A stretch of DNA of 22,952 nt from Candidatus Hodarchaeum mangrovi. GTDB lineage: Archaea > Asgardarchaeota > Heimdallarchaeia > Hodarchaeales > Hodarchaeaceae. The position numbers and the translations under genes are program-made. Of this stretch, positions 7,650 to 22,952 are shown in pieces; within the stretch, counting starts at the first letter, position 1, and each line of letters begins with the position of its first letter. The notes beneath the pieces are model-generated. The model made no database searches and had not been told where the DNA came from. It saw nothing but the letters and a program-made list of their open reading frames with translations. The stretch covers positions 1-22,952 of the forward strand of contig JAEOUE010000117.1 of NCBI GenBank assembly GCA_016839515.1, read 5' to 3'.

Positions 7650-8042
7650 TTGGATGATTCAGTGAAAAATACTATTCAGAAGGTCATTGAAGAGACGTTT
7701 GAACAAAATGCCCAGATTATGATGATTTCACTATCCGATGAAACAGGATTGCCAATATCAACTTATTCGAAGGATGAGGATGGGAAAATTTCTGAAATTA
7801 ATGATTATGGTATTACAAACCGATATGCCGCGTTAGCAGGAGCTAGTACAACCTTAGGAGAACGAACTCTGTCTACTATTTCTCAACAAGAAAGAGTAAG
7901 ATTAATTCATGTTCAAGGAAAAGACCGCGATGTAGCAATTTCTGTATCACCTCAAATGATCTGTCTAGTAGTGACCTACCCAAGCGGGAGTTCCAATCTT
8001 ATTGCAGAAAAATTGAGTTCCCAATTGAAATCAGTATTATAG
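7650..8042 (+). CDS. Roadblock/LC7 (LAMTOR2/MglB-like) domain protein
   Basis: 130 aa with Roadblock topology: N-helix, ISLSDETGLPIS strand, helix RYAALAGASTTLGERTL, strands LIHVQGKD/VAISV/ICLVVT and a C-helix. Start is TTG 7650 or GTG 7662. Confidence 0.85.
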   Translation: MDDSVKNTIQKVIEETFEQNAQIMMISLSDETGLPISTYSKDEDGKISEINDYGITNRYAALAGASTTLGERTLSTISQQERVRLIHVQGKDRDVAISVSPQMICLVVTYPSGSSNLIAEKLSSQLKSVL

Positions 8043-8058
8043 CAGGAGATCATTCACA

Positions 8059-9978
8059 ATGGATGAAACAAAATGGTGGGAACTTTTGAAAGCTTCTGTC
8101 CGATCAACTATTGACGAATTGGATGTAACTCGAATTTCTGCTATAGGATTGTTTTCATCAGATAATTATTTTTTTCCGAATGAAACTCAACTAGAACCTA
8201 ATGTTTCAAAAAACTTAATACTACTCGGAAGAGCATGGTTATTCCTATCAAGGATTCTACAAAATGAGCTTCAGCTTAGCTATTGGGACTCAATTGCCAT
8301 TAGTGGTCGTTCAACAACGCTTTCATTTTTTTCCTTAGGATTTGATATTTATCTTTTAGTCGAACACGAATCTACTGTAGATCCACTTGATATTATCAAA
8401 ATGGTCTTGAAATTTGTATTTAAATATGGCTATCAAGAAGAATATGAAACAGTAGGATTAGTTGCTGCTGAAGGTTTTCCAATCTGGGTTTCTTCTATAT
8501 ATGATGTTGATGAATTTTTATTTGCTATATCCATTACTTCGTTACTTACTCTTATAGAGCGAATAGATATGGAAGTCAATGCTGGAGGGGTTATTTCCTG
8601 TATCCTTCAAGGCACTGAAAGTCTACGATTACATGTGTCATTCAATCCTTCTCAAGATATTGTTTTAGCAACAACGTTGTCGAAACATAGCTCCATTGTC
8701 TCTGAAGAAATTCCTGAAGTTAAATCTCTCCTTGGGATAATTAAAGATCCTGCGCTGTACCCAGCATTTGTTCCTGAGTTAAAAAATGAAGAACGAGAAC
8801 GAATGCTGAAAGAAATCCGTCAAGATTTTAATGGTGAAATAACGGAAGAAGAAATTGAGTCACTCACCTCCTTCAAAGAGGAGACTCTTCTTTCCATTGA
8901 AGAGGAAATTACATCGGTAGCTAGGAAATATAGAGCAAATGAGATTTCAGTCGGCTATCTAAGGAAGAGGATGAGACTTCCCAGTGAAGTCTTAAGCATG
9001 TCTTTGGAGTACTTAATAGCAACAGGAAAAATTTTAGGACGGATTGGACGGTCAACTATATCTGGCCAAGAAATACTTGTCTTAGATCATTTTACCCAAA
9101 AACAATCCATAGAAATTGATAGAATAAAAATAGTTCAAAGTCAGATTACTGATCTTTTCTTACCACTAGAGAATATAATATCCCAGCTCCCTGAAATTAC
9201 ACTAGAAGCTCAAAAACAAGAAATTCGGGATGCTCTATCCGAATATCAAATTATTCAGACTCTAGCTGATTCAGATCCTCTGTATCTTCTTACAAATGAG
9301 ATTCGTACAACAAATCAACAATTAGAAAATCTAGTTAAGGGATTAATCTTTTTAAAAAAACGTCTTACGAAGGTAAAAGAACAGGATATCTTACAAACTG
9401 AACTGAATAGAAGATATACTTTGTTAAATGACCGAATATATGCATTACAGATTGGTATTTATGGAAAAGTAGCTAGATATTTTGATGATTTGAAGAATCA
9501 TTATCAATTACTACTTAGATTAATTCCAACTCCTACATCATTTCCAATAGACTCAAATGAAGCGGAATCTCATTTAATTTTAGTTGAATTTCGTTGTCAA
9601 GCTCATAATTGCCTTCATAAGGGACAAATTCAAGACTATTATACGACATGGATTAAACTAGGTGTATTTGCCCGTTTCCTTGGTATAATTGAAGAATTTC
9701 CAGATGCAAATAACATAAAAATCATCCAGTTGAAAAATAACCTGATTTTATCAATAGAAAATCTTGAAAAGATGTCAAACGAAGTCGAAGTTGAAAAAGA
9801 AGTTGAATTTTATCCGTTTTTAAATGATTTAGATGATTTAATCATCTCAAATAACGAAAGAGAACGTTTAATTTCTCTTTTACAGGGAAATGCTTTAACA
9901 GAGTTTTTTCAATGTAGCACCTGCAATAAGTGGTACTGTAACAAACACATTAAAGAGAATAAATGTTTATATTGCTAA
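8059..9978 (+). CDS. Multidomain protein: tandem Roadblock-like domains, winged-helix-like segment, coiled coil, C-terminal Cys/His zinc finger
   Basis: aa ~126-215 (ETVGLVAAEGFPIW...FAISITSLLTLIERIDMEV...CILQG) is Roadblock-like, and aa 1-125 is a more diverged copy. aa ~280-345 (EISVGYLRKRMRLPSEVLSMSLEYLIATGKILGRI) is wHTH-like. A helical heptad-rich region follows, then CQAHNC and terminal CSTCNKWYCNKHIKENKCLYC. AGGAG upstream at 8044-8048. Confidence 0.65.
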   Translation: MDETKWWELLKASVRSTIDELDVTRISAIGLFSSDNYFFPNETQLEPNVSKNLILLGRAWLFLSRILQNELQLSYWDSIAISGRSTTLSFFSLGFDIYLLVEHESTVDPLDIIKMVLKFVFKYGYQEEYETVGLVAAEGFPIWVSSIYDVDEFLFAISITSLLTLIERIDMEVNAGGVISCILQGTESLRLHVSFNPSQDIVLATTLSKHSSIVSEEIPEVKSLLGIIKDPALYPAFVPELKNEERERMLKEIRQDFNGEITEEEIESLTSFKEETLLSIEEEITSVARKYRANEISVGYLRKRMRLPSEVLSMSLEYLIATGKILGRIGRSTISGQEILVLDHFTQKQSIEIDRIKIVQSQITDLFLPLENIISQLPEITLEAQKQEIRDALSEYQIIQTLADSDPLYLLTNEIRTTNQQLENLVKGLIFLKKRLTKVKEQDILQTELNRRYTLLNDRIYALQIGIYGKVARYFDDLKNHYQLLLRLIPTPTSFPIDSNEAESHLILVEFRCQAHNCLHKGQIQDYYTTWIKLGVFARFLGIIEEFPDANNIKIIQLKNNLILSIENLEKMSNEVEVEKEVEFYPFLNDLDDLIISNNERERLISLLQGNALTEFFQCSTCNKWYCNKHIKENKCLYC

Positions 9979-9994
9979 TGGAGGTATTAATTCT

Positions 9995-10780
9995 TTGAGT
10001 ACCGTTGCAGGTTTAGATATTGGATCACTAACTGCCAAAATTGTTGTATTAAAGTACGAGAATTCACATTTAATTAAAAAATATTCACAACTCCAAAAAG
10101 TGGGTTATAATCCATCAAAGATTGCTCAAAAATTGAAAAAAGAAAGTTTAAATGCTCTCAAACTTAAAAATTTTGATTACATTGTCTCAACAGGATATGG
10201 TAGACGATTAATTGATGCAGATAAGACTGTAACTGAGATTACATGTCACGCAAAAGGTGCACATTACATTAATCCGAAGGTGAGGACAATTATTGATATT
10301 GGGGGCCAGGACTCAAAAGTTATTCGAATAAATGAAGTTGGGCAAGTGCAAAATTTTGAAATGAATGATAAATGTTCCGCAGGGACTGGAAGGTTCTTGG
10401 AAGTTATGGCAAATGCTCTTGAAGTTGATATCACAGAATTTGGAACTCATGCCCTAGAATCAACAAATCCTGTTGCTATCTCAAGTACATGTACAGTTTT
10501 CGCAGAATCTGAAGTGATAGGACGAATTAATCAAGGTGTAAATCGAAATGATGTAATCGCTGGAATTCTTAGTTCAATAGCATCAAAAATATCTATGCTT
10601 GCTGCACGGGTAGGTGTTCAACCAGAAGTAATCCTAACTGGAGGCGTAGCTTTAAATCCAGGAGTAAGAATAATGTTAGAAAGAAATCTCGAGATTCCAA
10701 TTCTATTACCAGAAAATCCCCAAATTATTGGAGCCCTAGGTGCTGCACTCATTGCTGCTCAAAATATTGAAAAGACCTAA
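9995..10780 (+). CDS. 2-hydroxyacyl-CoA dehydratase activase (HgdC/BcrAD/BadFG ASKHA ATPase, [4Fe-4S])
   Basis: GLDIGSLTAK, STGYGR, EITCHAKG, IIDIGGQDSK, MNDKCSAGTGRFLE, SSTCTVFAESE, TGGVALN, GALGAAL. GGAGGT at 9980-9985 precedes the TTG start. Confidence 0.93.
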   Translation: MSTVAGLDIGSLTAKIVVLKYENSHLIKKYSQLQKVGYNPSKIAQKLKKESLNALKLKNFDYIVSTGYGRRLIDADKTVTEITCHAKGAHYINPKVRTIIDIGGQDSKVIRINEVGQVQNFEMNDKCSAGTGRFLEVMANALEVDITEFGTHALESTNPVAISSTCTVFAESEVIGRINQGVNRNDVIAGILSSIASKISMLAARVGVQPEVILTGGVALNPGVRIMLERNLEIPILLPENPQIIGALGAALIAAQNIEKT

Positions 10781-10797
10781 ATTGATGTGACACATTT

Positions 10798-11772
10798 ATG
10801 TCTCAAATATTTTCTGGATTAACAATCAATGATGTTCAAAATACTTACAAGCAGATCCGACCTTATATTCTCAAAACACCATTAATTAGATCGTTCTATT
10901 TAGAACGTAAAATTAAAAAGGAAGTATATCTTAAACTAGAATATTTACAACCAACCAGAAGTTTTAAAGTGCGAGGGGCTTGTTCAAAAGCCTTGTCATT
11001 AAATCCTGAGGAACTTAAACAAGGTTTGGTTACTGCTTCGGGAGGAAATCATGGTTTAGGGGTCTGCTATGCTGGTAAAGAATTAGAAGCTCCTACTACC
11101 GTTTTCTTACCCAATGGAACAAATCAAGAAACCATAGAAACAATTAAAAAATGGGGAGCAAAAGTTTTTTTGCATGGGAAAGCATGGGATGAAGCAAATA
11201 TTGCAGGTCAGAAATATGCAGTTGATAATGCAAAAACATATATACATGCTTTTGACGATATTGCAGTGGTAAGAGGACAGGGAACTATCGCCTTAGAGAT
11301 GTTAGAACAAAATCCTTTCCTTGATGCAATTATTGTTTCTGTTGGTGGAGGAGGATTAATAAGTGGAATTGGATTAGTTGCACGGCAAATGAAGCCCGAA
11401 ATTAGGATTTATGGAGTTGAAACTGTTGGTGCAGATGCTGTAACTCAAAGTTTTCATCAAGGAACACTTGTTGAACTTCCAGCGATTACAAGTATCGCTA
11501 AAACTCTTGGAGCAAAAAAAACCACTCAAGCAACCTTGGATCGTATCAATGCTGTAGTTGATGACATGCAGACTGTAACGGATCAGGAAGCACTCGATTC
11601 ATTGAAGATTATGCTGAACTATGAAAAAATCCTACTTGAACCTGCAAGTTCCTGCTCAGTAGCTGCATTATTACTTAATAAATTTAATTTTGAAGATATG
11701 GATCGCATCGGAATTATTCTATGCGGAGCTAATGTTACTCTTAATGAACTTAAAAAATGGAAAGTTGTATGA
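10798..11772 (+). CDS. PLP-dependent threonine/serine dehydratase (fold type II, no ACT regulatory domain)
   Basis: LKLEYLQPTRSFKVRGA (PLP lysine), TASGGNHG, GQGTIALE, VSVGGGGLISG, LEPASS, ILCGAN. 324 aa, catalytic domain only. Confidence 0.9.
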   Translation: MSQIFSGLTINDVQNTYKQIRPYILKTPLIRSFYLERKIKKEVYLKLEYLQPTRSFKVRGACSKALSLNPEELKQGLVTASGGNHGLGVCYAGKELEAPTTVFLPNGTNQETIETIKKWGAKVFLHGKAWDEANIAGQKYAVDNAKTYIHAFDDIAVVRGQGTIALEMLEQNPFLDAIIVSVGGGGLISGIGLVARQMKPEIRIYGVETVGADAVTQSFHQGTLVELPAITSIAKTLGAKKTTQATLDRINAVVDDMQTVTDQEALDSLKIMLNYEKILLEPASSCSVAALLLNKFNFEDMDRIGIILCGANVTLNELKKWKVV

Positions 11773-11805
11773 ATATATATTGACTTAAAAAGGAAAAGAA
11801 CTGTT

Positions 11806-12315
11806 ATGGATGTATTACAACTACTTAAAGGAAGAAGAAGTATTAGAAAATATTTAAACACACCTGTTGAAGACGAAAAAATTTTACAATGCCTTGAAGC
11901 AGCTAGATGGGCTCCTAGTGCTTCCAACAAACAACCATGGGAATTTTTAGTTGTGAAGAATAAAATGATTAGAGAAAAATTAGCTGAATTACATCCCTAT
12001 GCTAAATTTGTTGCACAGAGTCCTGTGGTCTTTGTTCCATTGACAAATCCGAAAATTCACCCGAAATATCACAAATCAGATACAGCATTAGCCACTTTAC
12101 AATTTATGATAACTGCACATGCCTTAGAACTCGGTACTTGTTGGGCAGGAGTCATTGGTACATCATTTGAAAAAGAAATAAAAAAATTACTTCATATTCC
12201 TGACCACCTCCATGTATTAGCTATTATAGCGCTGGGATATCCTGATCAGAAGAGAGAGTCAACACGAAAGGAGTTAGATACCCTTACCCACTGGGAATCC
12301 TACGGATTAAAATAG
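11806..12315 (+). CDS. Nitroreductase family protein (FMN-binding)
   Basis: RRSIRKY, AARWAPSASNKQPWEF, AHALELGTCW, IIALGYPD. Confidence 0.92.
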   Translation: MDVLQLLKGRRSIRKYLNTPVEDEKILQCLEAARWAPSASNKQPWEFLVVKNKMIREKLAELHPYAKFVAQSPVVFVPLTNPKIHPKYHKSDTALATLQFMITAHALELGTCWAGVIGTSFEKEIKKLLHIPDHLHVLAIIALGYPDQKRESTRKELDTLTHWESYGLK

Positions 12316-12447: not shown

Positions 12448-13461
12448 ATGGGAAAGATAGCTTTCTTTGGTATTCTAGTAATAATATTATTAACTTTTTT
12501 TACTTTAAATAATTCTCTAGATCAAGTAGGATATTCGACTATTCTATATGACAATAAAAGAACTTTTTTTGTTTCTGCTGATTATAGACTGAATATAACT
12601 TATCCTAATGGTGGAGATATTATATCTGGAGAAATAACAATCAGATGGATAATGTTAGAAGAATTGGTAGATGACTCAATAAGTTATCAGGTTCATTATT
12701 CACCTGATGGAGGAAATAATTGGCTTATATTATCTGGAATTATATTCGAAACAATATTTGTCTGGAATACTACATTGTATGAAAGCTACTGTCCAGATTG
12801 TACCCTTAGAATTACTGCTCAGAGTAAGCTCTTTGAAGCTTTTAGTGTCGTTTCAGATAGTTTTACGATTGATAATAGAGAAATAAATAAGATAAATGAA
12901 GTTTTGACATTTATCATAATTACTGGGATTTTAATCCTTCTCGGATTTGGTATATTTCAATATCAAGCTAAATTTAGACAAAAAACATTTTTACAGGTAA
13001 TTCAATCAGAAAAACACGAATGGATAAAAATATTAAGTCAAAAAGTAGTTATTGGATTAGATAACATAAAAAATAGCTTTGTTGAAGAGCTTCCTGATTC
13101 TTTTTCTAATGAATCTTTATCACTTTCTTCTTCTGTTATAGATCTTTTTCCAATGAATATACGTTATGATTTACAGCATAATATTAAGGGGAGAACTATA
13201 TTAACTTTAGTAGAAATAGCCTATCAAAATCCCAGTGAAACTAATCCATCCAAAATTTCTAAAAGCCTTAATATTCCTCTTTCGACTCTTTCCAAGGAAA
13301 TTAAGAAGTTAATTGATTTGAATTATGTGGAATCCTATCTCACGAATCAAATGATACTTGATGCAAGATTTAAAAGCTTTAATATCACACCAAAAGGATT
13401 TAAATTTTTACTTAGTTTGGATAAAGTATTAAAAATTACTATAGATCGTTCAAAAAATTAG
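12448..13461 (+). CDS. Membrane-anchored one-component regulator: signal/TM, extracellular beta-sandwich, TM, cytoplasmic MarR-like wHTH
   Basis: Hydrophobic N-terminus; ITYPNGGD...ITIRW...YSPDGGNNW...WNT...LRITA...FTIDN Ig-like segment; TM VLTFIIITGILILLGFGIF; C-terminal NPSKISKSLNIPLSTLSKEIKKLIDLNYV...DARFKSFNITPKG wHTH. Confidence 0.78.
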   Translation: MGKIAFFGILVIILLTFFTLNNSLDQVGYSTILYDNKRTFFVSADYRLNITYPNGGDIISGEITIRWIMLEELVDDSISYQVHYSPDGGNNWLILSGIIFETIFVWNTTLYESYCPDCTLRITAQSKLFEAFSVVSDSFTIDNREINKINEVLTFIIITGILILLGFGIFQYQAKFRQKTFLQVIQSEKHEWIKILSQKVVIGLDNIKNSFVEELPDSFSNESLSLSSSVIDLFPMNIRYDLQHNIKGRTILTLVEIAYQNPSETNPSKISKSLNIPLSTLSKEIKKLIDLNYVESYLTNQMILDARFKSFNITPKGFKFLLSLDKVLKITIDRSKN

Positions 13462-13565
13462 TTTCTAAAATGAAACTACCCACATTATTTATTTTCTCAT
13501 TTTTATATCTCCTTAGTGATTAGATCAAATGGTTAAATCTGATTTAGAAGTAAGGAGAAGAAATT

Positions 13566-15158
13566 ATGAAAATAAATCTACATTCATTAAGGTTTGTGTT
13601 AGTGCCCCTAATACTGTTCACAATATTTTTGCAAACCTCTATTTTTGCTACTAGCAAGATATCTGCGAATACTGATAACTATATTCATTGTAGCTTTCTT
13701 GGTGGAAGTCAGGATGACCTCATCAGGGATATCGCAATAGATTCTGAAGGTAATTTCATTGTCACTGGAGATACAATGTCTAATGATTTTCCTATTACAG
13801 AGAATGCCTTCCAAAGTACCTTTGCTGGAGGAATACAGGATATACATACAGATAGCTGAGATACTTTCAGTTCTAAATTTAATAAATCAGGAGGTTTGAT
13901 ATGGTCCAGCTTTCTAGGAGGATCCAGTAACGATGGAGGAATGCATGTGGTAGTAGATAGTTTTGATAATATTTTTGTTGTTGGAGTAACAAATTCGTTC
14001 GATTTTCCCACCTCAGAATCTGGTTATAATGGCGCTACTGATGGATTTATCACAAAATTAGCTCCAAATGGAACAATGTTATTTTCTAAGTGTATTGGAA
14101 CAACAGGCGAGGAATATATTGAAGGATGTGTACTTAAGGGGGATGTTATTACCCTTACTGGTAGTACTAACTCACAAACATTTACTATCACAACAGATGC
14201 CAATCAAAAAGACTTTGGAGGTATAACTGACGGTACAATCGTACAAATAGATTGTAATAATGGATCAATCATTTATTCAAGTTTTCTTGGTGGAAATAAT
14301 TTTGATGTACTCGGGGAAATTTCAGTGAATACTAACGGTAATTTTATTCTAAATGGAATTTCTGAAAGTAATGATTTACCAATTTCAGATAATGCTTACT
14401 CTCAAGATATGTCAGGGCCAGGTAGAGATTTTTTTATTGCTGCGTTGAACCAGAATTTGATGATAGAATATTGTTCTTTTTTTGGAGGATCAGGAATAGA
14501 TGACTCTTTTGGATGTACAATAGATTCTGATAATAATCTGATCTTTAGTGGAAGGACTTGGTCTATTGATTTTCCAATCACCAATGCATATCAAGCTGTC
14601 TATGGTGGAACAGAAGGAAGTTTTGAGGGTGTTGATGCATTCATAGCTAAAATTGATCAGGTTACAGGTGATTTACTCTTCTCGAGCTATTTTGGAGGGC
14701 CAGAATGGGATACATTACATCACCTAGCTGTAGATGATGAAAAAAATGTTTATTCATGTGGGATAGCACCAACCGATGATTTTCCAATTATCAATGGATT
14801 GCAATCGGAAGTAACTGGCTTATCAGATATAATATTACTCGCTTTGACCCCTGAAGGTCAACCATTTTTTGGTACTTATCTAGGAGGTAATGGAATTGAT
14901 CATCCATGGAATATGAAACTAATCGACAATCTATTTTATATTGTTGGCCATACAAACTCATTTGATTTTCCTGTATCAGATGAGGCTTACCAACAAGCTA
15001 AAAATGGATTTGATGATGGATTCTATATTCGGTTTGATCTAAAGCAATATCTAGAAGACATAAGTCAAACTAGTAATACCTCACATAGCACTAGCCTAGA
15101 ATTTTCAATTATTTTCGTAATAATCATCTATTATATAAAGGGAAAAAAGAATAATTGA
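13566..15158 (+). pseudogene. Secreted/surface SBBP-repeat beta-propeller protein interrupted by one in-frame TGA (13857-13859)
   Basis: ORFs 13566-13859 and 13896-15158 share a frame and are joined by TGA GAT ACT TTC AGT TCT AAA TTT AAT AAA TCA GGA GGT (*DTFSSKFNKSGG). Repeats S(F/Y)(L/F)GG...D...TxSxDFP...DxFxxK occur on both sides of the stop. Signal peptide at the N-terminus; S/T linker, hydrophobic stretch and KGKK at the C-terminus. AGGAG upstream. May be a pseudogene, an assembly error or a recoded gene. Confidence 0.7.
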
Positions 15159-15185
15159 GATTAAATTACTATTTTTTTTCTTTTT

Positions 15186-17486
15186 TTATCGGAGGGCTTG
15201 GGGAAAAGTCTGGTCTTCTAATATCAATTTTTCAAACCCAATCATATCCACTTGTCCCTTTTTTAATATGGTTTCAGCTCTTTTTATATCAAAATCCCCT
15301 TGGAGAATCAAAGGGATCATGGGATGAACTGATTTAATTTCATTAACTACTGAAGAAATATCTAGAGCTTCTAAGTTTTTAGAATATCCAATACTTAACA
15401 AATCTATTCCTGCATCTCTTAACATTCCGATGAATTCTAAAATCTCCTCATTAACTAATCCTGGTATAGGTAAAGTCAAATGAAATGAAAGTATGGTTTT
15501 CGGAGAAAGATGTTGTTTTAATGATTTTAGAATTTCTATTATAAAACGAGATCTATTTACAAGACTTCCTCCATATTGATCCTCTCTTTTGTTAAATTCG
15601 CTTGAAAGGAATTGTCCTATCAAATTAGATTCTTTGTAAGGAATTAAACAAGCTGCTAATTCAATAATATCAAAGCCAGCATGATCAGCACGTTTTCCAG
15701 CTTGAACAAATTCGGATTGCAGATCAATTATCTGTGATTGGGTTAGTTCAACTGGTATTTGATTTTTATCATTAGGAATCGCTGAAGGAGCAAGAGGAGT
15801 TTCTCCTGTTAGAGATATAATTGCTGCAGCACCAGCGTGGTTCAATCTTAAACCAGCAAGTGAATTAAGCTGGTGAATTTGAGTAACAGTTTCCTCTAAT
15901 CGGGGAATTGTATAATCATCATGAATCCCAAGCTGATAAGCATGACTCTTGCCAGAACGAGAAATATATGCTGGTTCAAAATAAATGAGTGCTGTTCCTC
16001 CATCTGCTGTTGAAATATAATGATGACTTGCTTCCCGTGTTAATTGCCCCGAAACATCTTCTGCGATATTGAATTTTCTTTGATTTGAAAGTGAAGGAAG
16101 AACAACTCGGTTACGTGTTTTTAATGTCCCTAACTGGTATGATTGACTTAACACTGACTCTTTAGGAACACGATTTCGAATGGTCAATAAGATTGATGTT
16201 GCTATTGTATAAAGAGTCGCTGTAAAGAGAAATACATAGATAAATCCAAAAGTATCTACAATAAATCCCCCAATGCTTGCAGAGACACTCCAGAACATTC
16301 CCCAGGCCAAAGTCTCTAAGCTATTCCATTTTGCCCGAGAGGATGCTGGTACCACATCCATTACAATACTACGAGAAATGGGGCCACTAGCATTCATTAA
16401 AGCGTTCCGAGTAAGATAAAAACCTACAAGAATTACCACAGAGAGCTCCCATGTTATTATTTGATTCTGAAAAAGAAATATATTTACCACTAATCCGAGT
16501 AAGCAGATAATAGCTAAACCTTGGACTAAGAACATAGAAATAATTCGTCCAAAGAATTTTATCATCCGTTGAGCAACTAAACCCATAATACCTGTTGCGA
16601 TATTAGTAATACCAACCACTGAATAAGTAAAAAGAGGTTTTAATCCATATCCGATAGTTTCACTGGCAAAAAGAATAGGAAAAAATGCAACAGTAGCTCC
16701 AGCGCCAAACCCAATGATTATTCCACTTATAACAATAGTGATGGGGACTACCCAATCATAAGATGGTCTAGAAATATCGAAACTCTTATTAAACACCTGA
16801 AAGCTCTTCTTTACTCCAATATCTTCAATCTGATCATCTTGGGATAAAACTTTTTCTTTTCCTCTTTCCTGAACTGAAACTAAGGCTTTATCATCTGATG
16901 CAAAGATCACTGCAGCATTTCCAATGATATTTGCAAAGGCACCAAAGAAAATAATTACTTGTAGAACACTAAATTCCCAGTTATCTCCTAGGAAAATCGT
17001 TAAGGCAGCTGCAAGAAAGGGCCCTGCAGCAGCTGCCACGAGATTGATAAAGTGCATATTTGCAAATACTTTACTTCGATTACCAGGTTCAATACTGTCT
17101 GCAATCAAAGCCTGAGAAGCTGGACCGGATAATCCCCAACTCAGACCCCCAAATAATTGCGCAACGAAGAGAAGTACTAGAGCTGAAGAAGGAACTTTTG
17201 TCGTTGAATAAATTAAAATGATCTGCCCTAAGATACCAAAAAATACAGAAATTCGTATCAGAAAATCTCTACGATATTTATCTGCAAAATAACCTGAAGG
17301 GAAAACGAATATTGTGGAGGCAAGACCTGAAGTCGTGAAAAGATTACCTAATATTAGATTTGGAGTAAGAATGCCTACTTCCCCACTCAATAAATATACA
17401 TATACTGAAAAAGCGGTTTGTATGATTCCAAATCCAATTGCACCTGTTATCGTTTGAATATAGGCTAACCTAATGTTCCAATTCAT
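15186..17486 (-). CDS. MFS transporter fused to a C-terminal NADH:flavin oxidoreductase (Old Yellow Enzyme-like) TIM-barrel domain
   Basis: aa 1-~440 has about 12 TM segments and MFS motif A (GYFADKYRR). aa ~445-766 has LGTLKTRNRVVLP, LNHAG, PLAPSAIP, AGFDIIEL, QFLS and NKREDQYGGSLVNRSRFIIEI. Single uninterrupted ORF. Confidence 0.88.
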   Translation of the reverse strand: MNWNIRLAYIQTITGAIGFGIIQTAFSVYVYLLSGEVGILTPNLILGNLFTTSGLASTIFVFPSGYFADKYRRDFLIRISVFFGILGQIILIYSTTKVPSSALVLLFVAQLFGGLSWGLSGPASQALIADSIEPGNRSKVFANMHFINLVAAAAGPFLAAALTIFLGDNWEFSVLQVIIFFGAFANIIGNAAVIFASDDKALVSVQERGKEKVLSQDDQIEDIGVKKSFQVFNKSFDISRPSYDWVVPITIVISGIIIGFGAGATVAFFPILFASETIGYGLKPLFTYSVVGITNIATGIMGLVAQRMIKFFGRIISMFLVQGLAIICLLGLVVNIFLFQNQIITWELSVVILVGFYLTRNALMNASGPISRSIVMDVVPASSRAKWNSLETLAWGMFWSVSASIGGFIVDTFGFIYVFLFTATLYTIATSILLTIRNRVPKESVLSQSYQLGTLKTRNRVVLPSLSNQRKFNIAEDVSGQLTREASHHYISTADGGTALIYFEPAYISRSGKSHAYQLGIHDDYTIPRLEETVTQIHQLNSLAGLRLNHAGAAAIISLTGETPLAPSAIPNDKNQIPVELTQSQIIDLQSEFVQAGKRADHAGFDIIELAACLIPYKESNLIGQFLSSEFNKREDQYGGSLVNRSRFIIEILKSLKQHLSPKTILSFHLTLPIPGLVNEEILEFIGMLRDAGIDLLSIGYSKNLEALDISSVVNEIKSVHPMIPLILQGDFDIKRAETILKKGQVDMIGFEKLILEDQTFPQALR

Positions 17487-17647: not shown

Positions 17648-18133
17648 ATGACCCAAGCAGTAATTCAGACTAAGTATGGGGAGATTGTTATCGAATTTTA
17701 CGATTCTGTGATCAATACAGTGAAGAATTTCGTTTCTTTAGCAGAATCTGGCTTTTATAATGGCTTAACCTTTCATCGTGTGATACCCAATTTTGTAGCC
17801 CAAGGAGGATGTCCACATGGAACAGGAACAGGAGGTCCAGGATATACTATTCCTTGTGAAACAGAAATTAACAAAAAGAAAGGACATAAACACGAAAGAG
17901 GAGTGATTTCAATGGCTCATGCTGGAAAAGATACTGGAGGATCTCAATTCTTTCTGGTTAAAGCCCCACAACCCCATTTAGATGGAATTCATACTGTTTT
18001 CGGGAATATTATTGATGGTGAGGAAATAATTGACCAACTTAAACAAGGAGATAAGATGGAGAAAGTAGTAATCCGCAATAAGAGCTCAGCCATCGAAAAT
18101 CATACTCTAGTCAAACAATCATCTAGACGCTAA
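17648..18133 (+). CDS. Cyclophilin-type peptidyl-prolyl cis-trans isomerase
   Basis: [58 protein letters not shown] upstream. Confidence 0.95.
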
Positions 18134-18193: not shown

Positions 18194-19606
18194 CTAGAGG
18201 GTTTGAGACTGCTCTTGTATTAATGCCCAAGCTTTAGTCACATGCTTTTCCTGAACTGCAGTCTGGCCAATGACAAATCTTAGAGTAAATTTTCCATCTA
18301 GTTTTGTATGTGTCATGAAAATTTTCCCTGTTTTGTTTATTTTCTCTAATAACTCTTCATTCATTCGGTTTAATTCTTCTTCCGCGGACACATTAGAGGG
18401 ACGATATCTGAAACAGATTGTATTCAGCGGTACTGGAGCTAATAGTTCAAAATTTACTGAGGTTTCAATTTTTTTCTTCAAATCCTCTGAAAGATTGAGA
18501 TGATATCTAATTCTTTGTTGTAATCCTTCTACTCCATAATGTCGAATTACCCACCAGAGTTTTAAAGCCCTGAAACGTCTTCCAAGTTGTAATCCCCAGT
18601 CTCTGAAATTTTTAACTCCTTCTGCTGTTGTTTTAAGATACTCTGGTAGGATTTCAAAAGTGTGGACCAATGCTTCGGGATCTTTAATGAAGTATGCTGA
18701 ACAATCAAAATTGGTAAACATCCACTTGTGGGGATTAAATACAAATGTATCAACATATTCTATTCCCTCTATCATCCACCGCTTTTCGGGGAGAAGTAAA
18801 GCTGTCCCCGCTAATGCTGCATCTACATGAAGCCAGATGTTATATCTTGAACATATTTCCCCTATTTCTTTCAAAGGATCAATTGCTGTGGAACCTGTTG
18901 TCCCAATTGTTGCAACAACTGCCATGGGTTTCATACCTTTGTCAATATCTGATTCAATAACTTCTTGGAGAGATTCTGATTGTAAGGCATACTCTGTATC
19001 AACTGGTATTTTCCTTAAATTCTCTTTTCCTATCCCAATTATTTTTATAGCTTTCTCAATACTTGAATGAGTCTCGCTAGAGCAATAGGTTGTTAAAATA
19101 CTCCGCTCAAATAATCCTAGCTTATTTACCTCATAATTATTAAGCTTTTCTCGGGCAGTAAGGAGAGAACAAATAGTGGATGTTGAAGCGGTGTCCTGGA
19201 TCACTCCACAAAAATGTTTAGGTAGGCCTATCATATCGCGTAACCATTCCATAACACGTTCTTCCAATTCAGTGGCAGCAGGAGAAGTAACCCAACTCAT
19301 GCATTGAGCACCAATAGCTGCGGTTAGCATTTCAGCAAGTACTGAGGGAGGAGAACTATTGGCAGGGAAGTATCCGAAAAAATTGGGACTTTGCCAATGA
19401 GTAATTCCAGGAATAATGATTTCTTCAAAATCTGAAAAAATCTGACTAAAAGACTCACCTTTCATTGGAGCATTTAAAGGTAGTTTGTTTAAGATTTCTT
19501 TAGGTTCAACTTGCGATTTTACGGGAAAATTTTCCACATTTTCTAGATAGTTTGCCATCCAGTCTACTATCTGGTGTCCATATTTTCGAAACTCATCTAA
19601 ATCCAT
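18194..19606 (-). CDS. ddc: Aromatic-L-amino-acid decarboxylase (group II PLP decarboxylase, DOPA decarboxylase-like)
   Basis: PGITHWQSPNFFGYFP, SPAATELE, ETHSS, GTTGSTAID, WLHVDAA, FNPHKW (PLP lysine), PEYL, LGRRFRALKLW. Start ATG 19606 preferred over TTG 19636. Confidence 0.9.
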   Translation of the reverse strand: MDLDEFRKYGHQIVDWMANYLENVENFPVKSQVEPKEILNKLPLNAPMKGESFSQIFSDFEEIIIPGITHWQSPNFFGYFPANSSPPSVLAEMLTAAIGAQCMSWVTSPAATELEERVMEWLRDMIGLPKHFCGVIQDTASTSTICSLLTAREKLNNYEVNKLGLFERSILTTYCSSETHSSIEKAIKIIGIGKENLRKIPVDTEYALQSESLQEVIESDIDKGMKPMAVVATIGTTGSTAIDPLKEIGEICSRYNIWLHVDAALAGTALLLPEKRWMIEGIEYVDTFVFNPHKWMFTNFDCSAYFIKDPEALVHTFEILPEYLKTTAEGVKNFRDWGLQLGRRFRALKLWWVIRHYGVEGLQQRIRYHLNLSEDLKKKIETSVNFELLAPVPLNTICFRYRPSNVSAEEELNRMNEELLEKINKTGKIFMTHTKLDGKFTLRFVIGQTAVQEKHVTKAWALIQEQSQTL

Positions 19607-19934
19607 TTTCAAATCATCCCTTTGATTGACCTTCAAATATTTATAAAAATTTTATAATAGTTTATTGTAGGGTAATAAAAAAGTACATTCGAGACTTGTA
19701 TTAGAAATAACACCTCAAAGAATAGAGTTGTTATATTCATCATAAAGTGAATATAAATCCCACTTGATGTAATATACTTATGTTCCGGCTTCCAGAAGGA
19801 AAAACAGGTTAGTGTTATTGCAAGAGATTCATGAAGCTTATTTTTCTCAAGTTTAGATTGATCTAGAAATCCTTTTTAATAAGCTAATGTTGATGAGTTA
19901 AAACTTTGTTTTTAAGGAAAAAGAAGGTCTTTCA

Positions 19935-21257
19935 ATGTCGTATGAAGTAAAAAAAGCCCAGAAGTTCAACGTAATTATTGCAGGAATTATTGGATGGGCA
20001 CACGATGGCTTTGCATTAGTGTTGGTGTCATTATTAGCTAATGATTTAATGGCTGCCTATAATGTAGGCAAAGCTGAGCTTGGTTTTGTCATGAGTGCCC
20101 AATATATCATGACAGTTTTTGGTGCTGCCTTTTTTGGGTTTTTAGCAGACCGATTTGGTCGTAAAAATGTTTTACTTATTTCTGTCCTATGGGATTCCAT
20201 ATTTACTGCTATATCTCCCTTGGCACCGAATTTTATAATCTTTGCAATGTTAAGGATGATTTCTGGACTTGGGGTTTCATGGGGAATATCCTTTTCCTTG
20301 CTTTCCGAGAGTTTTTCCCCTAAAAAACGTGGAATGGCCGGTGGACTTGTTCATGCGACATTCGTTGTTGGTTACATTGGTGCAGTGATCACCACTATGA
20401 TTCTTAAACCAATGTCCATAGTTCTTGGCTCCTTTGTTATATATGGTTGGCAGTTATGCTTCTTATCCGCCCTCTTCCCAGTTCCCTTCTTAATTTACCT
20501 TGAACTCACTCTCTCAGAGTCTCAGATGTGGGAAAAAGTAAAACAGGAAACTCCTGAGATAGAACGAGTGAGGTTCACCGAATTATTAGAATCTCGATGG
20601 CTTAGATATATGATTCTCCTAACCTTCTTATTCTGGTTATCTGAGTTTGCTTATCATGTTTTAGCAGATTGGGCTCCTACATACTTTGAATATGTTTTTA
20701 TCAATCAACTTCAAACTACAGGAGGAAATGTCGACTCTGCAGACACTCTTGCATTAATGGTTATGCTTGTAATAATGATTGTCGCAGGTTTCGCTTTATT
20801 TTTCACTGGATGGATTAGTGATCATATTGGCCGTCAAAATGCGTTTATTGGATGTTCTTTGATTGGAATTATTGGAATTTCTATTTTTATTATCGGAAAT
20901 TTTGTAACCTTTGATCTTATTATAATTATTCCTGCTGTATTAATTCTTACTTCATCCTTTGGTGTGCATGGAGTTTTTGGAATCTGGTCCAGTGAAACTT
21001 TCCCTACCAGGTTGCGTGCTACAGCCACTTCAATTATTTTTTCACTAGCCAGAGCATTGGGTCTGGGCGCATTCATTGTTGGCATAATTTCTGATTCTTT
21101 GACTCCTTCTGTCTCAGAATTTATTGATCCTATTGGATGGGCTAGAGCACTTGCTTTTGGGATGTCTTTAAGTATCATTGCTTATATCTTGATGATATTT
21201 GTTCCAAAACTTATCCCTGAGACAAAAGGAATTGATATTTCAAAAATTGCTGATTAA
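19935..21257 (+). CDS. MFS transporter (aromatic acid/sialate:H+ symporter-like)
   Basis: GFLADRFGRK, ESFSPKKRG, GWISDHIGRQ, SETFPTRLRATA, IPETKG; about 12 TM segments. Confidence 0.9.
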   Translation: MSYEVKKAQKFNVIIAGIIGWAHDGFALVLVSLLANDLMAAYNVGKAELGFVMSAQYIMTVFGAAFFGFLADRFGRKNVLLISVLWDSIFTAISPLAPNFIIFAMLRMISGLGVSWGISFSLLSESFSPKKRGMAGGLVHATFVVGYIGAVITTMILKPMSIVLGSFVIYGWQLCFLSALFPVPFLIYLELTLSESQMWEKVKQETPEIERVRFTELLESRWLRYMILLTFLFWLSEFAYHVLADWAPTYFEYVFINQLQTTGGNVDSADTLALMVMLVIMIVAGFALFFTGWISDHIGRQNAFIGCSLIGIIGISIFIIGNFVTFDLIIIIPAVLILTSSFGVHGVFGIWSSETFPTRLRATATSIIFSLARALGLGAFIVGIISDSLTPSVSEFIDPIGWARALAFGMSLSIIAYILMIFVPKLIPETKGIDISKIAD

Positions 21258-21263
21258 GAAGTT

Positions 21264-22952
21264 CTACTGAAGCTGAATCTTACCAGTTAGGAGCTGTTGC
21301 ATTAATCCTATAGTAAGTTTTTCAGTTTCAGTGGAAATATTTTTTGTTGTTATGAGAGTTTGATTTACAACACTCAAAATCTTTGTAATTCTTTTCTGCT
21401 CAGACAGAGGAGGAATAGGTATTCTTATTGTCTTAAAATCCACTGGATTTATTCCATGAGAACCCCCAGAAAATCGTTTTTTAATTTGATCTTGTACTAA
21501 AGCTGATGAGAGCAAATAAAATAGATATTTTTGTTCTAATTTGTTCGGATCCTTTGTTCTAACAATTAGAATTTTTTCATTGGCATATAATTGCTTATAT
21601 GGGAGTTCTTTGATAAAAACTGTATTTCCAGTGGTCTCTCCACTTTTAGAAACCAAAATATCGTGCAAGTGAACTTGTCCTTTCGTATTATCTTCTAATC
21701 CATCCTGTGTTGTAAAATCCAAGCTATCCCATTTAACTGTTCCAAATTCACCAAATTTTTTCTCTGAAATTATCGCAATATTCCCATTTTTAGACAATTT
21801 AACTGTTTTTCCATCTTGAAGTTCTATCATTTCACCCAAATTCAACGAATACCAAGTTGCTGGAAGATTCCCCTCCTCAGGTTCTTTAAAGCTGTCGAGC
21901 TCTGAAAGGACATTAATCACCTCTTGGCTTAAATGTGACCTTTCCATCTCTAAATGTAATAGATTAGCTTTACTCAATGATAAATCAATTATTTCATCTT
22001 GTAGAGATTTCTCAATATAGAGGGGAATATTAAGGTTAAAGGAATAATTTATTATTTCCTTAATGGTAACTAATTGGGAATAATCCTGAATTGTTCGAAA
22101 TTGTTTGAAAGTAGAAACAATTTTTTCAATTGAATGCTGGCTAAGAAAATTTTGAGGATTAGCTTCGATAACATCATTGAAGGCATCTATAAATAATATT
22201 TTTCCTTTTCGTTCTTTTAATTTGGATTTAGATAGGATTAGAATACACGCAGCAACTTTGGAATCATAAAAGAGATTGGGGGGAAGACCAATTATTGCTT
22301 CAATCAAATCTTGCTCAACAAGCTTTTTACGAATTTTTCGTTCCTCACCTCCTCGAAATAAGACCCCTGGTGGAAATACTGCTCCAAGTCGACCATTGGG
22401 TCTTAAAATTGCCAGTAAATGTTGTAAAAACATTAGATTTCCATAATGTGAAGAAGGTATACCAAACTGGAATCGTTCAAAAGGATCTTCGCTAGCTAAT
22501 TGCTGCCATGATCCTCCTATTCTAAAGGGAGGGTGAGTTAGTACCAAATCAAATTCTAGGAGTTGATCTCCTTGCTTAAACTTGGGATCAAAAAGAGAAT
22601 TACCTTTTTCAATTCTGATTGTATGCATATTATCTAGTAAAAGGTGTATTTTTGCCAAGGCGAATGTTTCTGAATCTTTTTCTTGACCATAAAGGTATAA
22701 ACCTTCAGTTTTACCTCCTTCTGCTTTTATATACTCAATACATTGAAACAAAGTCCCTGCAACTCCTAAGGCTGGATCGCAGATCCATTCTCCCTCCTTA
22801 GGATTGAGCAATTTTACAAGTAAATCATTTACTGTAGGAGGTGTAAGAGAGGAATTTTTTGTCCCAATAGACTCTTCAAATTTGACTAATAAATTTCGAT
22901 AGACTTGCCCTAAAATACTTGGATTTTCTAAATCTTGATTTCTTAAGCTAAA
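21264..22952 (-). CDS. hsdM: Type I R-M HsdM-like N6-methyltransferase fused to a single HsdS half (5'-truncated by window edge)
   Basis: The frame stays open to the window end (FSLRNQDLENPSILGQVYRNLLVKFEESIGTKNSSLTPPTVNDLLVKL...). HsdM motifs: YGQE, GVLFRGGEERKIR, IIGLPPNLFY, ILFIDA, NLNIPLYI. HsdS part starts at LPATWYSLNLGE (about 21866) and ends IPIPPLSEQKRI...LMQQLLTGKI. Confidence 0.85.
   Translation of the reverse strand, partial: FSLRNQDLENPSILGQVYRNLLVKFEESIGTKNSSLTPPTVNDLLVKLLNPKEGEWICDPALGVAGTLFQCIEYIKAEGGKTEGLYLYGQEKDSETFALAKIHLLLDNMHTIRIEKGNSLFDPKFKQGDQLLEFDLVLTHPPFRIGGSWQQLASEDPFERFQFGIPSSHYGNLMFLQHLLAILRPNGRLGAVFPPGVLFRGGEERKIRKKLVEQDLIEAIIGLPPNLFYDSKVAACILILSKSKLKERKGKILFIDAFNDVIEANPQNFLSQHSIEKIVSTFKQFRTIQDYSQLVTIKEIINYSFNLNIPLYIEKSLQDEIIDLSLSKANLLHLEMERSHLSQEVINVLSELDSFKEPEEGNLPATWYSLNLGEMIELQDGKTVKLSKNGNIAIISEKKFGEFGTVKWDSLDFTTQDGLEDNTKGQVHLHDILVSKSGETTGNTVFIKELPYKQLYANEKILIVRTKDPNKLEQKYLFYLLSSALVQDQIKKRFSGGSHGINPVDFKTIRIPIPPLSEQKRITKILSVVNQTLITTKNISTETEKLTIGLMQQLLTGKIQLQ

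Follow-up and report, generated by a model that had tools for sequence, protein, structure and literature searches.

What might an Old Yellow Enzyme (OYE) barrel be doing at the end of a membrane carrier? The question is raised by a gene on the 22,952-base contig JAEOUE010000117.1 of Candidatus Hodarchaeum mangrovi, which was analysed in its entirety and is called the window here; the genome to which it belongs amounts to 4.0 Mb in 348 contigs and is 91% complete and 6% contaminated. The list of open reading frames (ORFs) and the translation give a single uninterrupted ORF of 766 amino acids, at 15186..17486 (-) with the stop codon at 15186-15188, which encodes a permease of the major facilitator superfamily (MFS) fused in the same frame to an OYE domain. 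The Pfam profile MFS_1 (PF07690) matches residues 22-358 with 103.3 bits (E 1.7e-29, cut-off 33.4), and Oxidored_FMN (PF00724) matches residues 451-764 with 123.8 bits (E 1.2e-35, cut-off 27), covering profile positions 7-334 of 342. An earlier note, made from the letters of the window, had described one ORF comprising a complete MFS permease and an OYE barrel beginning at about nucleotide 16154, which corresponds to residue 445, and this description is borne out by the ORF, its translation and the Pfam matches. The motifs that it quoted, ELAACLIPYKESNL, RLNHAGA, SFHLT, GFEK and NKREDQYGGSLVNRSRF, all lie in the translation at the coordinates given below.

The explanation favoured here, by a modest degree, is that the barrel is a non-catalytic accessory module, whether regulatory, ligand-binding or partner-docking, that would modulate the MFS transporter. 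As the mechanism may be pictured, a Hodarchaeales-type Asgard gene would encode an MFS secondary transporter of 12 helices, the last of which runs on into a cytoplasmic triosephosphate isomerase (TIM) barrel; this barrel would descend from a flavoenzyme of the OYE or dienoyl-CoA-reductase type, with the scaffold kept and with the loss of the His/His/Tyr set and of nearly all the contacts to the isoalloxazine ring; fixed rigidly beneath the permease on its cytoplasmic side, it would tune the latter. A more specific and rather doubtful candidate function would be that of a sensor, derived from a flavoenzyme barrel stripped of its chemistry, which couples a metabolite or redox signal to the MFS carrier, or else that of a new flavin-independent activity on the cargo.

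Authenticity and distribution of the fusion

The first doubt raised by such a gene is that two separate genes may have been joined through misassembly, chimerism of the contig or loss of a stop codon, a suspicion to which the fragmentation of the genome and its 6% contamination lend some ground, with no specific sign of an artefact having been found. A near-identical gene is present in 20 public sequencing runs from seven studies, and the junction is bridged by contigs of two other studies, X5 (2014 nt, 15182-17195) and X2 (1346 nt, 15199-16544), both of which cross the stretch 16100-16200 where the earlier note had proposed a check of read support; the gaps that runs X9 and X11 show at this place carry no weight, only X2 and X5 being used. 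When 400 genomes of the phylum were scanned, 14 of the 22 that belong to the window's genus-level group (Hodarchaeales-type Asgard archaea, G000 included) proved to have the fusion without internal stops, among them G064 and G066, which are listed as a single contig. A full-length fusion was present in none of the other 378 scanned genomes, which hold only MFS-only relatives (34-41% identity) or ordinary OYEs (30-38%). With contigs of other studies bridging the junction, with the latter invariant at the protein level, and with the inspected short matches proving to be fragments of fusions, an artefact has a vanishingly small probability, and the fusion is neither the misassembly nor the singleton that the earlier note had considered it might turn out to be.

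In a protein search, 42 clusters contained the two Pfam domains together, at 53-100% identity to the query, the full-length fusion orthologues being 53-90% identical to the window protein; the source names of these clusters include Hodarchaeales, Hodarchaeota, Heimdallarchaeota, Hermodarchaeota, Promethearchaeota and, probably loosely, Thorarchaeota. Thirteen fusion loci were located on genome contigs (12 of them full-length, the other truncated at the end of its contig) and three further full-length loci on metagenome contigs, two of them 90% identical to the window. The database labels of the fusion proteins are only 'MFS transporter' or 'dienoyl-CoA reductase-like'. In an exhaustive search of 1.84 billion representatives at 50% identity, only the query's own cluster spans both domains, and the remaining top matches cover residues 1-445 or 445-766 alone. 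No free-standing degenerate barrel was found among the matches: the shorter ones (41-53% identity) are fragments of fusions, since those whose sequences were inspected start inside transmembrane helix 12 (TM12) or lack the N-terminus.

Two apparent variants of the architecture were set aside. P0109 carries an unrelated 69-residue head on a 1.3-kb contig and is a probable chimera or miscall, and an 805-aa frame of G086, taken at first for a second fusion, turned out to be an ordinary OYE followed by Pyr_redox_2 and SCP2. The locus L031 583-2979 (-) of that genome encodes an Asgard OYE with Pyr_redox_2 and a C-terminal SCP2 domain (E 5.3e-06), an unusual three-domain arrangement. As to the MFS-only relatives, some in several genomes of the class, for instance those in G023, G134, G046, G015 and G016, have one to three in-frame stops inside the match, which may represent pseudogenes, adjacent genes or alignment run-on.

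Orthologues of the permease that lack the barrel are informative in their own right. The protein search contained 11 MFS-only clusters at 51-66% identity, some of them cut by contig ends, and MFS-only orthologues occur in genomes G060, G061 and G077; at two loci, L017 (permease gene at 9950-11287) and L018 (59-60% identity), the gene lies in the middle of its contig (47 kb and 110 kb, respectively), the gene order is that of the fusion loci, and the permease ends a few residues past the junction point. No OYE remnant was detected by tblastn in L017 and L018, nor a separate copy of the barrel. A quick LG+G4 tree built from the permease part unites six of the MFS-only sequences in a clade (support 100) that is nested among the fusions, and the upstream gene block of the MFS-only genomes is common only to the fusion-bearing loci L004 and L016; from this tree position and gene block, the MFS-only forms are likely to result from secondary loss of the barrel. 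The existence of domain-less orthologues at the same locus suggests that the permease can probably work without the barrel, whose function would therefore be accessory to transport and lie outside the transport cycle itself. The next gene in L017 (11503-12708 (+)) and L018 (11427-12728 (+)) encodes a multi-pass membrane protein of 401 and 433 aa, respectively, which has a C-terminal Cys-x-x-Cys ... Cys-x-x-Cys tail, no Pfam match and no similarity to the barrel.

Former active site of the barrel

The structure of the fusion protein was predicted with AlphaFold2 from 34 homologues, an alignment drawn from 37 rows of at least 722 aa with the omission of P0010 and P0012, which are named partial, and of P0015; the full-length model has a mean predicted local distance difference test (pLDDT) score of 79.4 and a predicted template modelling (pTM) score of 0.69. 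The OYE-derived TIM barrel occupies residues 445-766 (15189..16154 (-)), as delimited by Pfam Oxidored_FMN, by the match to YqjM and by Foldseek. In the model, a beta-hairpin at 450-457 is followed by the eight strand/helix units of a beta/alpha barrel, as in the OYE fold. The barrel matches the sequence of YqjM (PDB 1z41) with E 3.9e-26, and Foldseek aligns it to 1z41_A over 334 columns with a TM-score of 0.77 normalised to the target (E 7.3e-15). The scaffold motif NKREDQYGGSLVNRSRF (15543..15593 (-)) is retained, and its residues N632, R634, D636, Y638 and G639 are invariant in the family and in the canonical comparators. Apart from the central loop of the permease, the only low-confidence stretch of the model is the loop after beta-3, here residues 553-578, which in OYEs forms a cap over the active site and which has deletions in six of the 34 homologues. 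The nearest relatives of the barrel are dienoyl-CoA-reductase-like enzymes of about 640 aa that join an OYE domain to a flavin adenine dinucleotide (FAD) module (33-36% identity). The window protein terminates at helix alpha-8, without the iron-sulphur (Fe-S) and FAD modules of these relatives, and lacks both the Cys motif and the Gly-Gly-Gly-Pro-Ala-Gly region with which the comparators extend past the barrel. For this C-terminal part, the NCBIfam matches, which are to models of the NamA, FadH-like, BaiCD and bilirubin-reductase types, all stay below threshold, and the Oxidored_FMN score of 123.8 bits is less than half of the 271.6 bits obtained by a canonical Asgard OYE domain.

The residues of the former pocket were compared through an alignment of YqjM with the barrel, from which YqjM numbering was transferred; the 34 homologues were set against 15 canonical OYE or dienoyl-CoA-reductase-like domains, made up of 14 matches from the exhaustive search and the genome's own ordinary OYE. 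For YqjM, a listing in PMC4002455 gives 17 residues binding flavin mononucleotide (FMN) and six binding the substrate, His164 and His167 binding the activating group of the substrate and Tyr169 acting as the proton donor. In the fusion family, the former His-x-x-His/Asn-x-Tyr catalytic motif of beta-4 reads ELAACLIPYKESNL in the window (15621..15662 (-)) and has gained an insertion of 4-6 residues. The column of His164 contains Ser in 29/34 homologues and Ala in 4/34 (His in 12/15 canonical domains); that of His167 lies inside the insertion, is variable and contains His in only 2/34 (canonical 12/15); and that of Tyr169 contains Asp in 22/34 and Asn in 8/34 (canonical Tyr 12/15). At the three positions of the catalytic triad the window protein has Ala611, Glu619, which falls within the insertion, and Asn621.

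The flavin contacts have fared similarly. Pro505 (15972..15974 (-)) stands at YqjM Ala60, a listed FMN-binding residue, and is Pro in all 34 homologues and in none of the 15 canonical domains. In the beta-3 motif RLNHAGA (15828..15848 (-)), Arg547 takes the place of the flavin-binding Gln102 of YqjM (Arg 33/34; canonical Gln 14/15), and His550 of the HAG motif is invariant in the family. The beta-5 motif SFHLT (15474..15488 (-)) has His669 in the MAFFT column of the flavin-binding Arg215, a column with Tyr in 17/34 and His in 13/34 homologues (canonical Arg 13/15, Lys 2/15); the phmmer alignment places Arg215 at Leu666 rather than at His669, and neither alignment finds an Arg there. The beta-8 motif GFEK (15228..15239 (-)) lies at the FMN-phosphate pair Gly307-Arg308, which is Glu-Lys in the window; across the family the first column is Gly in 18/34 and Glu in 12/34 (canonical Gly 14/15) and the second Arg in 14/34 and Lys in 10/34 (canonical Arg 14/15). 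Homologues in which the Gly-Arg pair is intact include P0009 and P0032. The column of Gly284 is conserved, with Gly in 33/34 homologues (Gly730 of the window protein) and in 11/15 canonical domains. This glycine is at most the one FMN residue out of 17 that the window protein keeps, Gln265 falling in a deletion. Asp is the commonest residue at the former pocket positions 621, 700 and 731 (22, 21 and 24 of the 34, respectively) and is invariant at none of them.

Neither the catalytic His/His/Tyr set nor the FMN-residue set of an active ene-reductase is thus found in the window protein. As judged from the alignment, the losses of the catalytic set and of the ring contacts are family-wide, and that of the phosphate Gly-Arg pair is limited to a part of the family that includes the window. 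The claim of the earlier note that the functional residues had been replaced holds, across the 34 homologues, for the catalytic triad and most flavin contacts; it carries little weight for the Arg of 'HAGR', which occurs in only 9/15 canonical domains and whose loss is therefore not diagnostic, and the loss of Gly-Arg proved clade-specific. With both the catalytic and the ring-holding residues lost, OYE ene-reductase chemistry would be impossible and canonical FMN binding improbable. The ordinary OYE that this genome also encodes (L002 1225-2247 (-), contig C282, 340 aa) has an intact His-Ala-Ala-His-Gly-Tyr and a short C-terminal Cys motif, and its neighbour is an enoyl-CoA-hydratase-like ORF.

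Selection on the two halves was read from the ratio of nonsynonymous to synonymous substitution rates (dN/dS) in unsaturated pairs of genes, more distant pairs being saturated. Between the window and L023 the ratio is 0.155 for the barrel and 0.072 for the permease (dS about 0.45-0.49), between L008 and L012 it is 0.114 and 0.096, and between L004 and L016 it is 0.221 and 0.070, the last pair being noisy at a dS of only 0.12-0.13. The mean pairwise identity of 16 genes is 0.67 in the permease, 0.51 in the barrel and 0.38 in the central loop. The barrel thus changes more quickly than the permease, yet it is clearly constrained by purifying selection, which argues that it has a function. Most of its near-invariant residues belong to the ordinary OYE scaffold, and the residues fixed specifically in this family include Tyr450, Gln481, Pro505, Ala506, His522, Tyr525, Arg547, Pro673 and Phe732. 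The catalytic losses are conserved among homologous fusions whose barrel is under purifying selection (dN/dS 0.11-0.22), the very pattern that the earlier note had proposed to look for. Its notion of a cytoplasmic pseudo-enzyme domain is supported by this selection and by the loss of OYE residues in the 34 homologues; the cytoplasmic location and the inactivated state are what we infer, and the ligand or redox sensing and the gating of the transporter that the note proposed would be candidate functions only.

Junction, permease and competing explanations

The two halves meet at residues 436-462 (16101..16181 (-)), where the end of TM12 passes without a linker into the N-terminal beta-hairpin of the OYE barrel, and where residues I436, P441, E443, S444, L446, Y450, L455, N459 and R460 are invariant in all 34 sequences. 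MFS proteins have both termini in the cytoplasm, and from this usual topology and the 12 helices of the model the barrel is predicted to be cytoplasmic. Since in OYE barrels the hairpin closes off the N-terminal face, this face should adjoin the permease and the former active-site face should point away from it, an orientation derived from topology and not from coordinates. A complex prediction with MFS residues 1-440 and barrel residues 445-766 as separate chains scored 0.01 against a mark of 0.32, which is evidence neither way.

The permease itself comprises residues 1-440 (16167..17486 (-)) with 12 predicted helices, according to Pfam MFS_1 and to the DSSP helices of the AlphaFold2 model. 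These long helices are arranged as in the MFS fold, with six (TM1-6, residues 3-195) before and six (TM7-12, residues 246-436) after the central cytoplasmic TM6-TM7 loop, residues 197-245 (16752..16898 (-)). The loop is poorly conserved, with a dN/dS of 0.14-0.23 in the unsaturated pairs and a pLDDT below 50 at residues 206-240. An Asp/Arg 'motif A' in the TM2-TM3 loop characterises the MFS, and in this loop G65, A68, D69, R72, R73 and D74 are invariant in 34/34 sequences; Asp/Arg loop motifs are conserved in both halves of the permease. It shares the 12 helices, the MFS_1 profile and the Asp/Arg loop motifs with the permeases near DHA3 and EntS (MFS_3), whose models TIGR00900 and PF05977 are its weak best matches, and it differs from these groups in falling below every subfamily cut-off tested and in carrying a 322-residue C-terminal enzyme-derived domain. 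For the N-terminal part, NCBIfam gave only sub-threshold DHA3-type matches, and an Atlas search with the MFS part gave generic MFS clusters only. By its sequence, the permease is an MFS member with no assignable subfamily or substrate.

Several observations weigh against a non-catalytic module that regulates the transporter. The 21 columns of the former pocket and the other 301 columns of the barrel are conserved alike (0.66 vs 0.64; 3642 of 10000 random sets reach 0.66), which speaks against a sharply defined ligand site in the pocket; such even conservation fits a role that may depend on the whole fold. The replacements at Pro505, Arg547, His522 and Tyr525 are fixed, a pattern that new chemistry would yield as well. 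The Gly-Arg phosphate motif persists in 14/34 homologues and Gly284 in 33/34, and some family members might still hold a phosphate-bearing ligand. On the side of the permease, the DHA3 profile TIGR00900 stays below its cut-off (30.7 bits vs 319.6), as does the EntS-like MFS_3 profile PF05977 (23.2 bits vs 27), which bears on the subfamily, and residues 1-442 have no sequence match in the PDB, which bears on the substrate. Finally, the approximately unbiased (AU) test, in which P0042 and P0043 (short contigs or named partial) were counted as fusions, does not reject a single fusion clade (p 0.094), so that secondary loss of the barrel is no more than likely.

The persistence of the phosphate motif suggests that, at least in the Gly-Arg clade, the barrel could still be a cofactor-binding redox module, which would hold FMN non-canonically, another flavin or a deazaflavin and would act as a sensor or as an oxidoreductase on the transported compound. 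The invariance of His550, the strong conservation of the scaffold and the purifying selection are also in keeping with this proposal. It is opposed by the replacement of the ring contacts in practically every member, where Gln has become Arg, Ala has become Pro, Arg has become Tyr or His and neither of the two His is left, by the absence of the proton-donor Tyr, by the Glu-Lys that the window clade has instead of Gly-Arg, and by the capping region 553-578, which is of low confidence in the model and deleted in part in 6/34, and such a module is considered improbable.

Another enzyme could also have arisen in the old barrel, since TIM barrels are known to switch chemistry. The fixed Arg547, His522 and Tyr525, together with the Asp/Asn at 621, 700 and 731, would then form a flavin-independent site that modifies the substrate before export or after import. 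Pro505 (34/34), Arg547 (33/34), His522 (34/34) and Tyr525 (34/34) are indeed fixed where canonical OYEs differ, and Asp predominates at three positions of the former pocket. However, none of Asp621, Asp700 and Asp731 is invariant, the pocket columns as a set are no more conserved than the remainder, and no match to another enzyme family was found in Pfam or NCBIfam; in addition, there are same-locus orthologues that lack the domain and have no separate copy of it. A neo-enzyme is accordingly regarded as quite unlikely.

The even spread of the conservation over the scaffold, without a centre in the pocket, and the rigid and invariant link to TM12 would also suit a barrel that is purely structural and contributes to stability, oligomerisation or anchoring with neither a ligand nor a regulatory role. 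Many OYEs form dimers or tetramers, which would favour such a role. A dN/dS of 0.11-0.22 sustained over 322 residues, along with fixed replacements at the surface and in the pocket, exceeds the constraint usual for a spacer, and we take this explanation to be unlikely too.

Known systems and gene neighbourhood

The barrel resembles the YqjM-type ('thermophilic-like') OYEs and the 2,4-dienoyl-CoA reductase-like OYE domains in its Oxidored_FMN family, its eight-stranded barrel and its N-terminal hairpin, and it shares with them the Asn-Arg before beta-1, the His-Ala-Gly of beta-3, the Gly-Phe-Asp-x-x-Glu of beta-4 and the Asn-x-Arg-x-Asp-x-Tyr-Gly-Gly motif. It differs from them in lacking the triad, in the replacement of the flavin-contact Gln, Ala and Arg, in the insertion of 4-6 residues in the catalytic motif and in stopping at alpha-8 with no Fe-S or FAD/NAD module, the canonical Asgard example combining Oxidored_FMN with Pyr_redox_2. 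Known OYEs are soluble, whereas the barrel described here is fused to a membrane permease.

The closest analogue of the proposed mode of action is Kv-beta, an aldo-keto-reductase TIM barrel that lies under a K+ channel and is thought to modulate it. There is no homology between the two systems, and Kv-beta differs in being a separate subunit, in belonging to another barrel family, in having kept NADPH binding and in having a channel as its partner. Further precedents, in which a cytoplasmic domain that is enzyme-like or binds a ligand controls a transporter or is fused to it, are KefF-KefC, the STAS domains of SLC26/SulP, the CBS domains of ClC and LplT-Aas, the last of which is an MFS protein fused to an enzyme; KefF and Aas are active enzymes, and the domain families involved differ from OYE. 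To our knowledge, none of these precedents joins an MFS protein to an OYE barrel or to an enzyme stripped of its catalytic residues. No description of the MFS-OYE architecture was found in a literature search of listings and abstracts or in passages of the Asgard transporter survey PMC7997004. The literature search found no paper that pairs 'old yellow enzyme' with 'pseudoenzyme'.

OYEs have been studied for decades as soluble flavoenzymes, and a membrane-tethered, stripped OYE maintained under selection would be an unrecognised fate of the fold. If the proposed reading is true, the barrel would be the first pseudoenzyme derived from an OYE and would parallel, on a carrier, the arrangement of Kv-beta and its channel; the few accessory modules known to be built into MFS carriers would be joined by a cytoplasmic domain of enzymatic origin. 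The Hodarchaeales are close archaeal relatives of eukaryotes; the significance of the fusion is limited by its narrow range, a single genus-level group. The same-locus orthologues with and without the barrel offer a natural experiment. In addition, the current database names mislead metabolic reconstructions of Asgard archaea, in which the OYE half is not to be counted as an ene-reductase or a dienoyl-CoA reductase.

The most constant neighbour of the fusion gene is a divergent cyclophilin-type peptidyl-prolyl isomerase gene (17648..18133 (+); Pfam Pro_isomerase, E 4.7e-39), found directly upstream in 16 of 20 sources (19 loci and the window), which serves as context only. A convergent block of five genes lies downstream (window 7650-12315 (+)) and is syntenic in about 12 of the 20 sources. 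Two of its products, of 130 aa and 639 aa, match no Pfam or NCBIfam family; the others are an acyl-CoA dehydratase activase (TIGR00241, 257 bits, cut-off 125), a threonine/serine-dehydratase-like enzyme dependent on pyridoxal phosphate and a small protein resembling nitroreductases. The activase might have an unrecognised partner in the 639-aa protein. Synteny extends to the upstream genes, and L008, L012 and L014 have other neighbours. Gene context was rejected as a clue to function, the block being on the opposite strand and the 15-20-kb region being syntenic among close relatives. Between the nitroreductase-like gene and the fusion, the window alone has two further genes (12448-15158 (+)), encoding a 337-aa protein with a weak winged-helix match and a 420-aa protein that contains a beta-propeller (SBBP) repeat and has a hydrophobic tail; by comparison with the related loci, the pair looks like a local insertion.

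Beyond the cyclophilin gene, 18194-19636 (-) encodes a group II pyridoxal-dependent decarboxylase (Pfam Pyridoxal_deC, E 3.7e-112), for which the closest NCBIfam models, those of diaminobutyrate and aspartate decarboxylases, score far below their cut-offs. The idea of an amine antiporter, suggested by this decarboxylase of the aromatic-amino-acid type, was dropped, as it adjoins the fusion only in the window. Beside it, at 19935-21257, lies the gene of another MFS permease, one of the aromatic-acid/metabolite symporter type, with synteny in eight sources. At the end of the window, a 515-aa ORF (21264-22811 (-)) encodes an N6-DNA-methylase fused to a type I specificity (Methylase_S) domain, the frame of which may run past the end of the contig.

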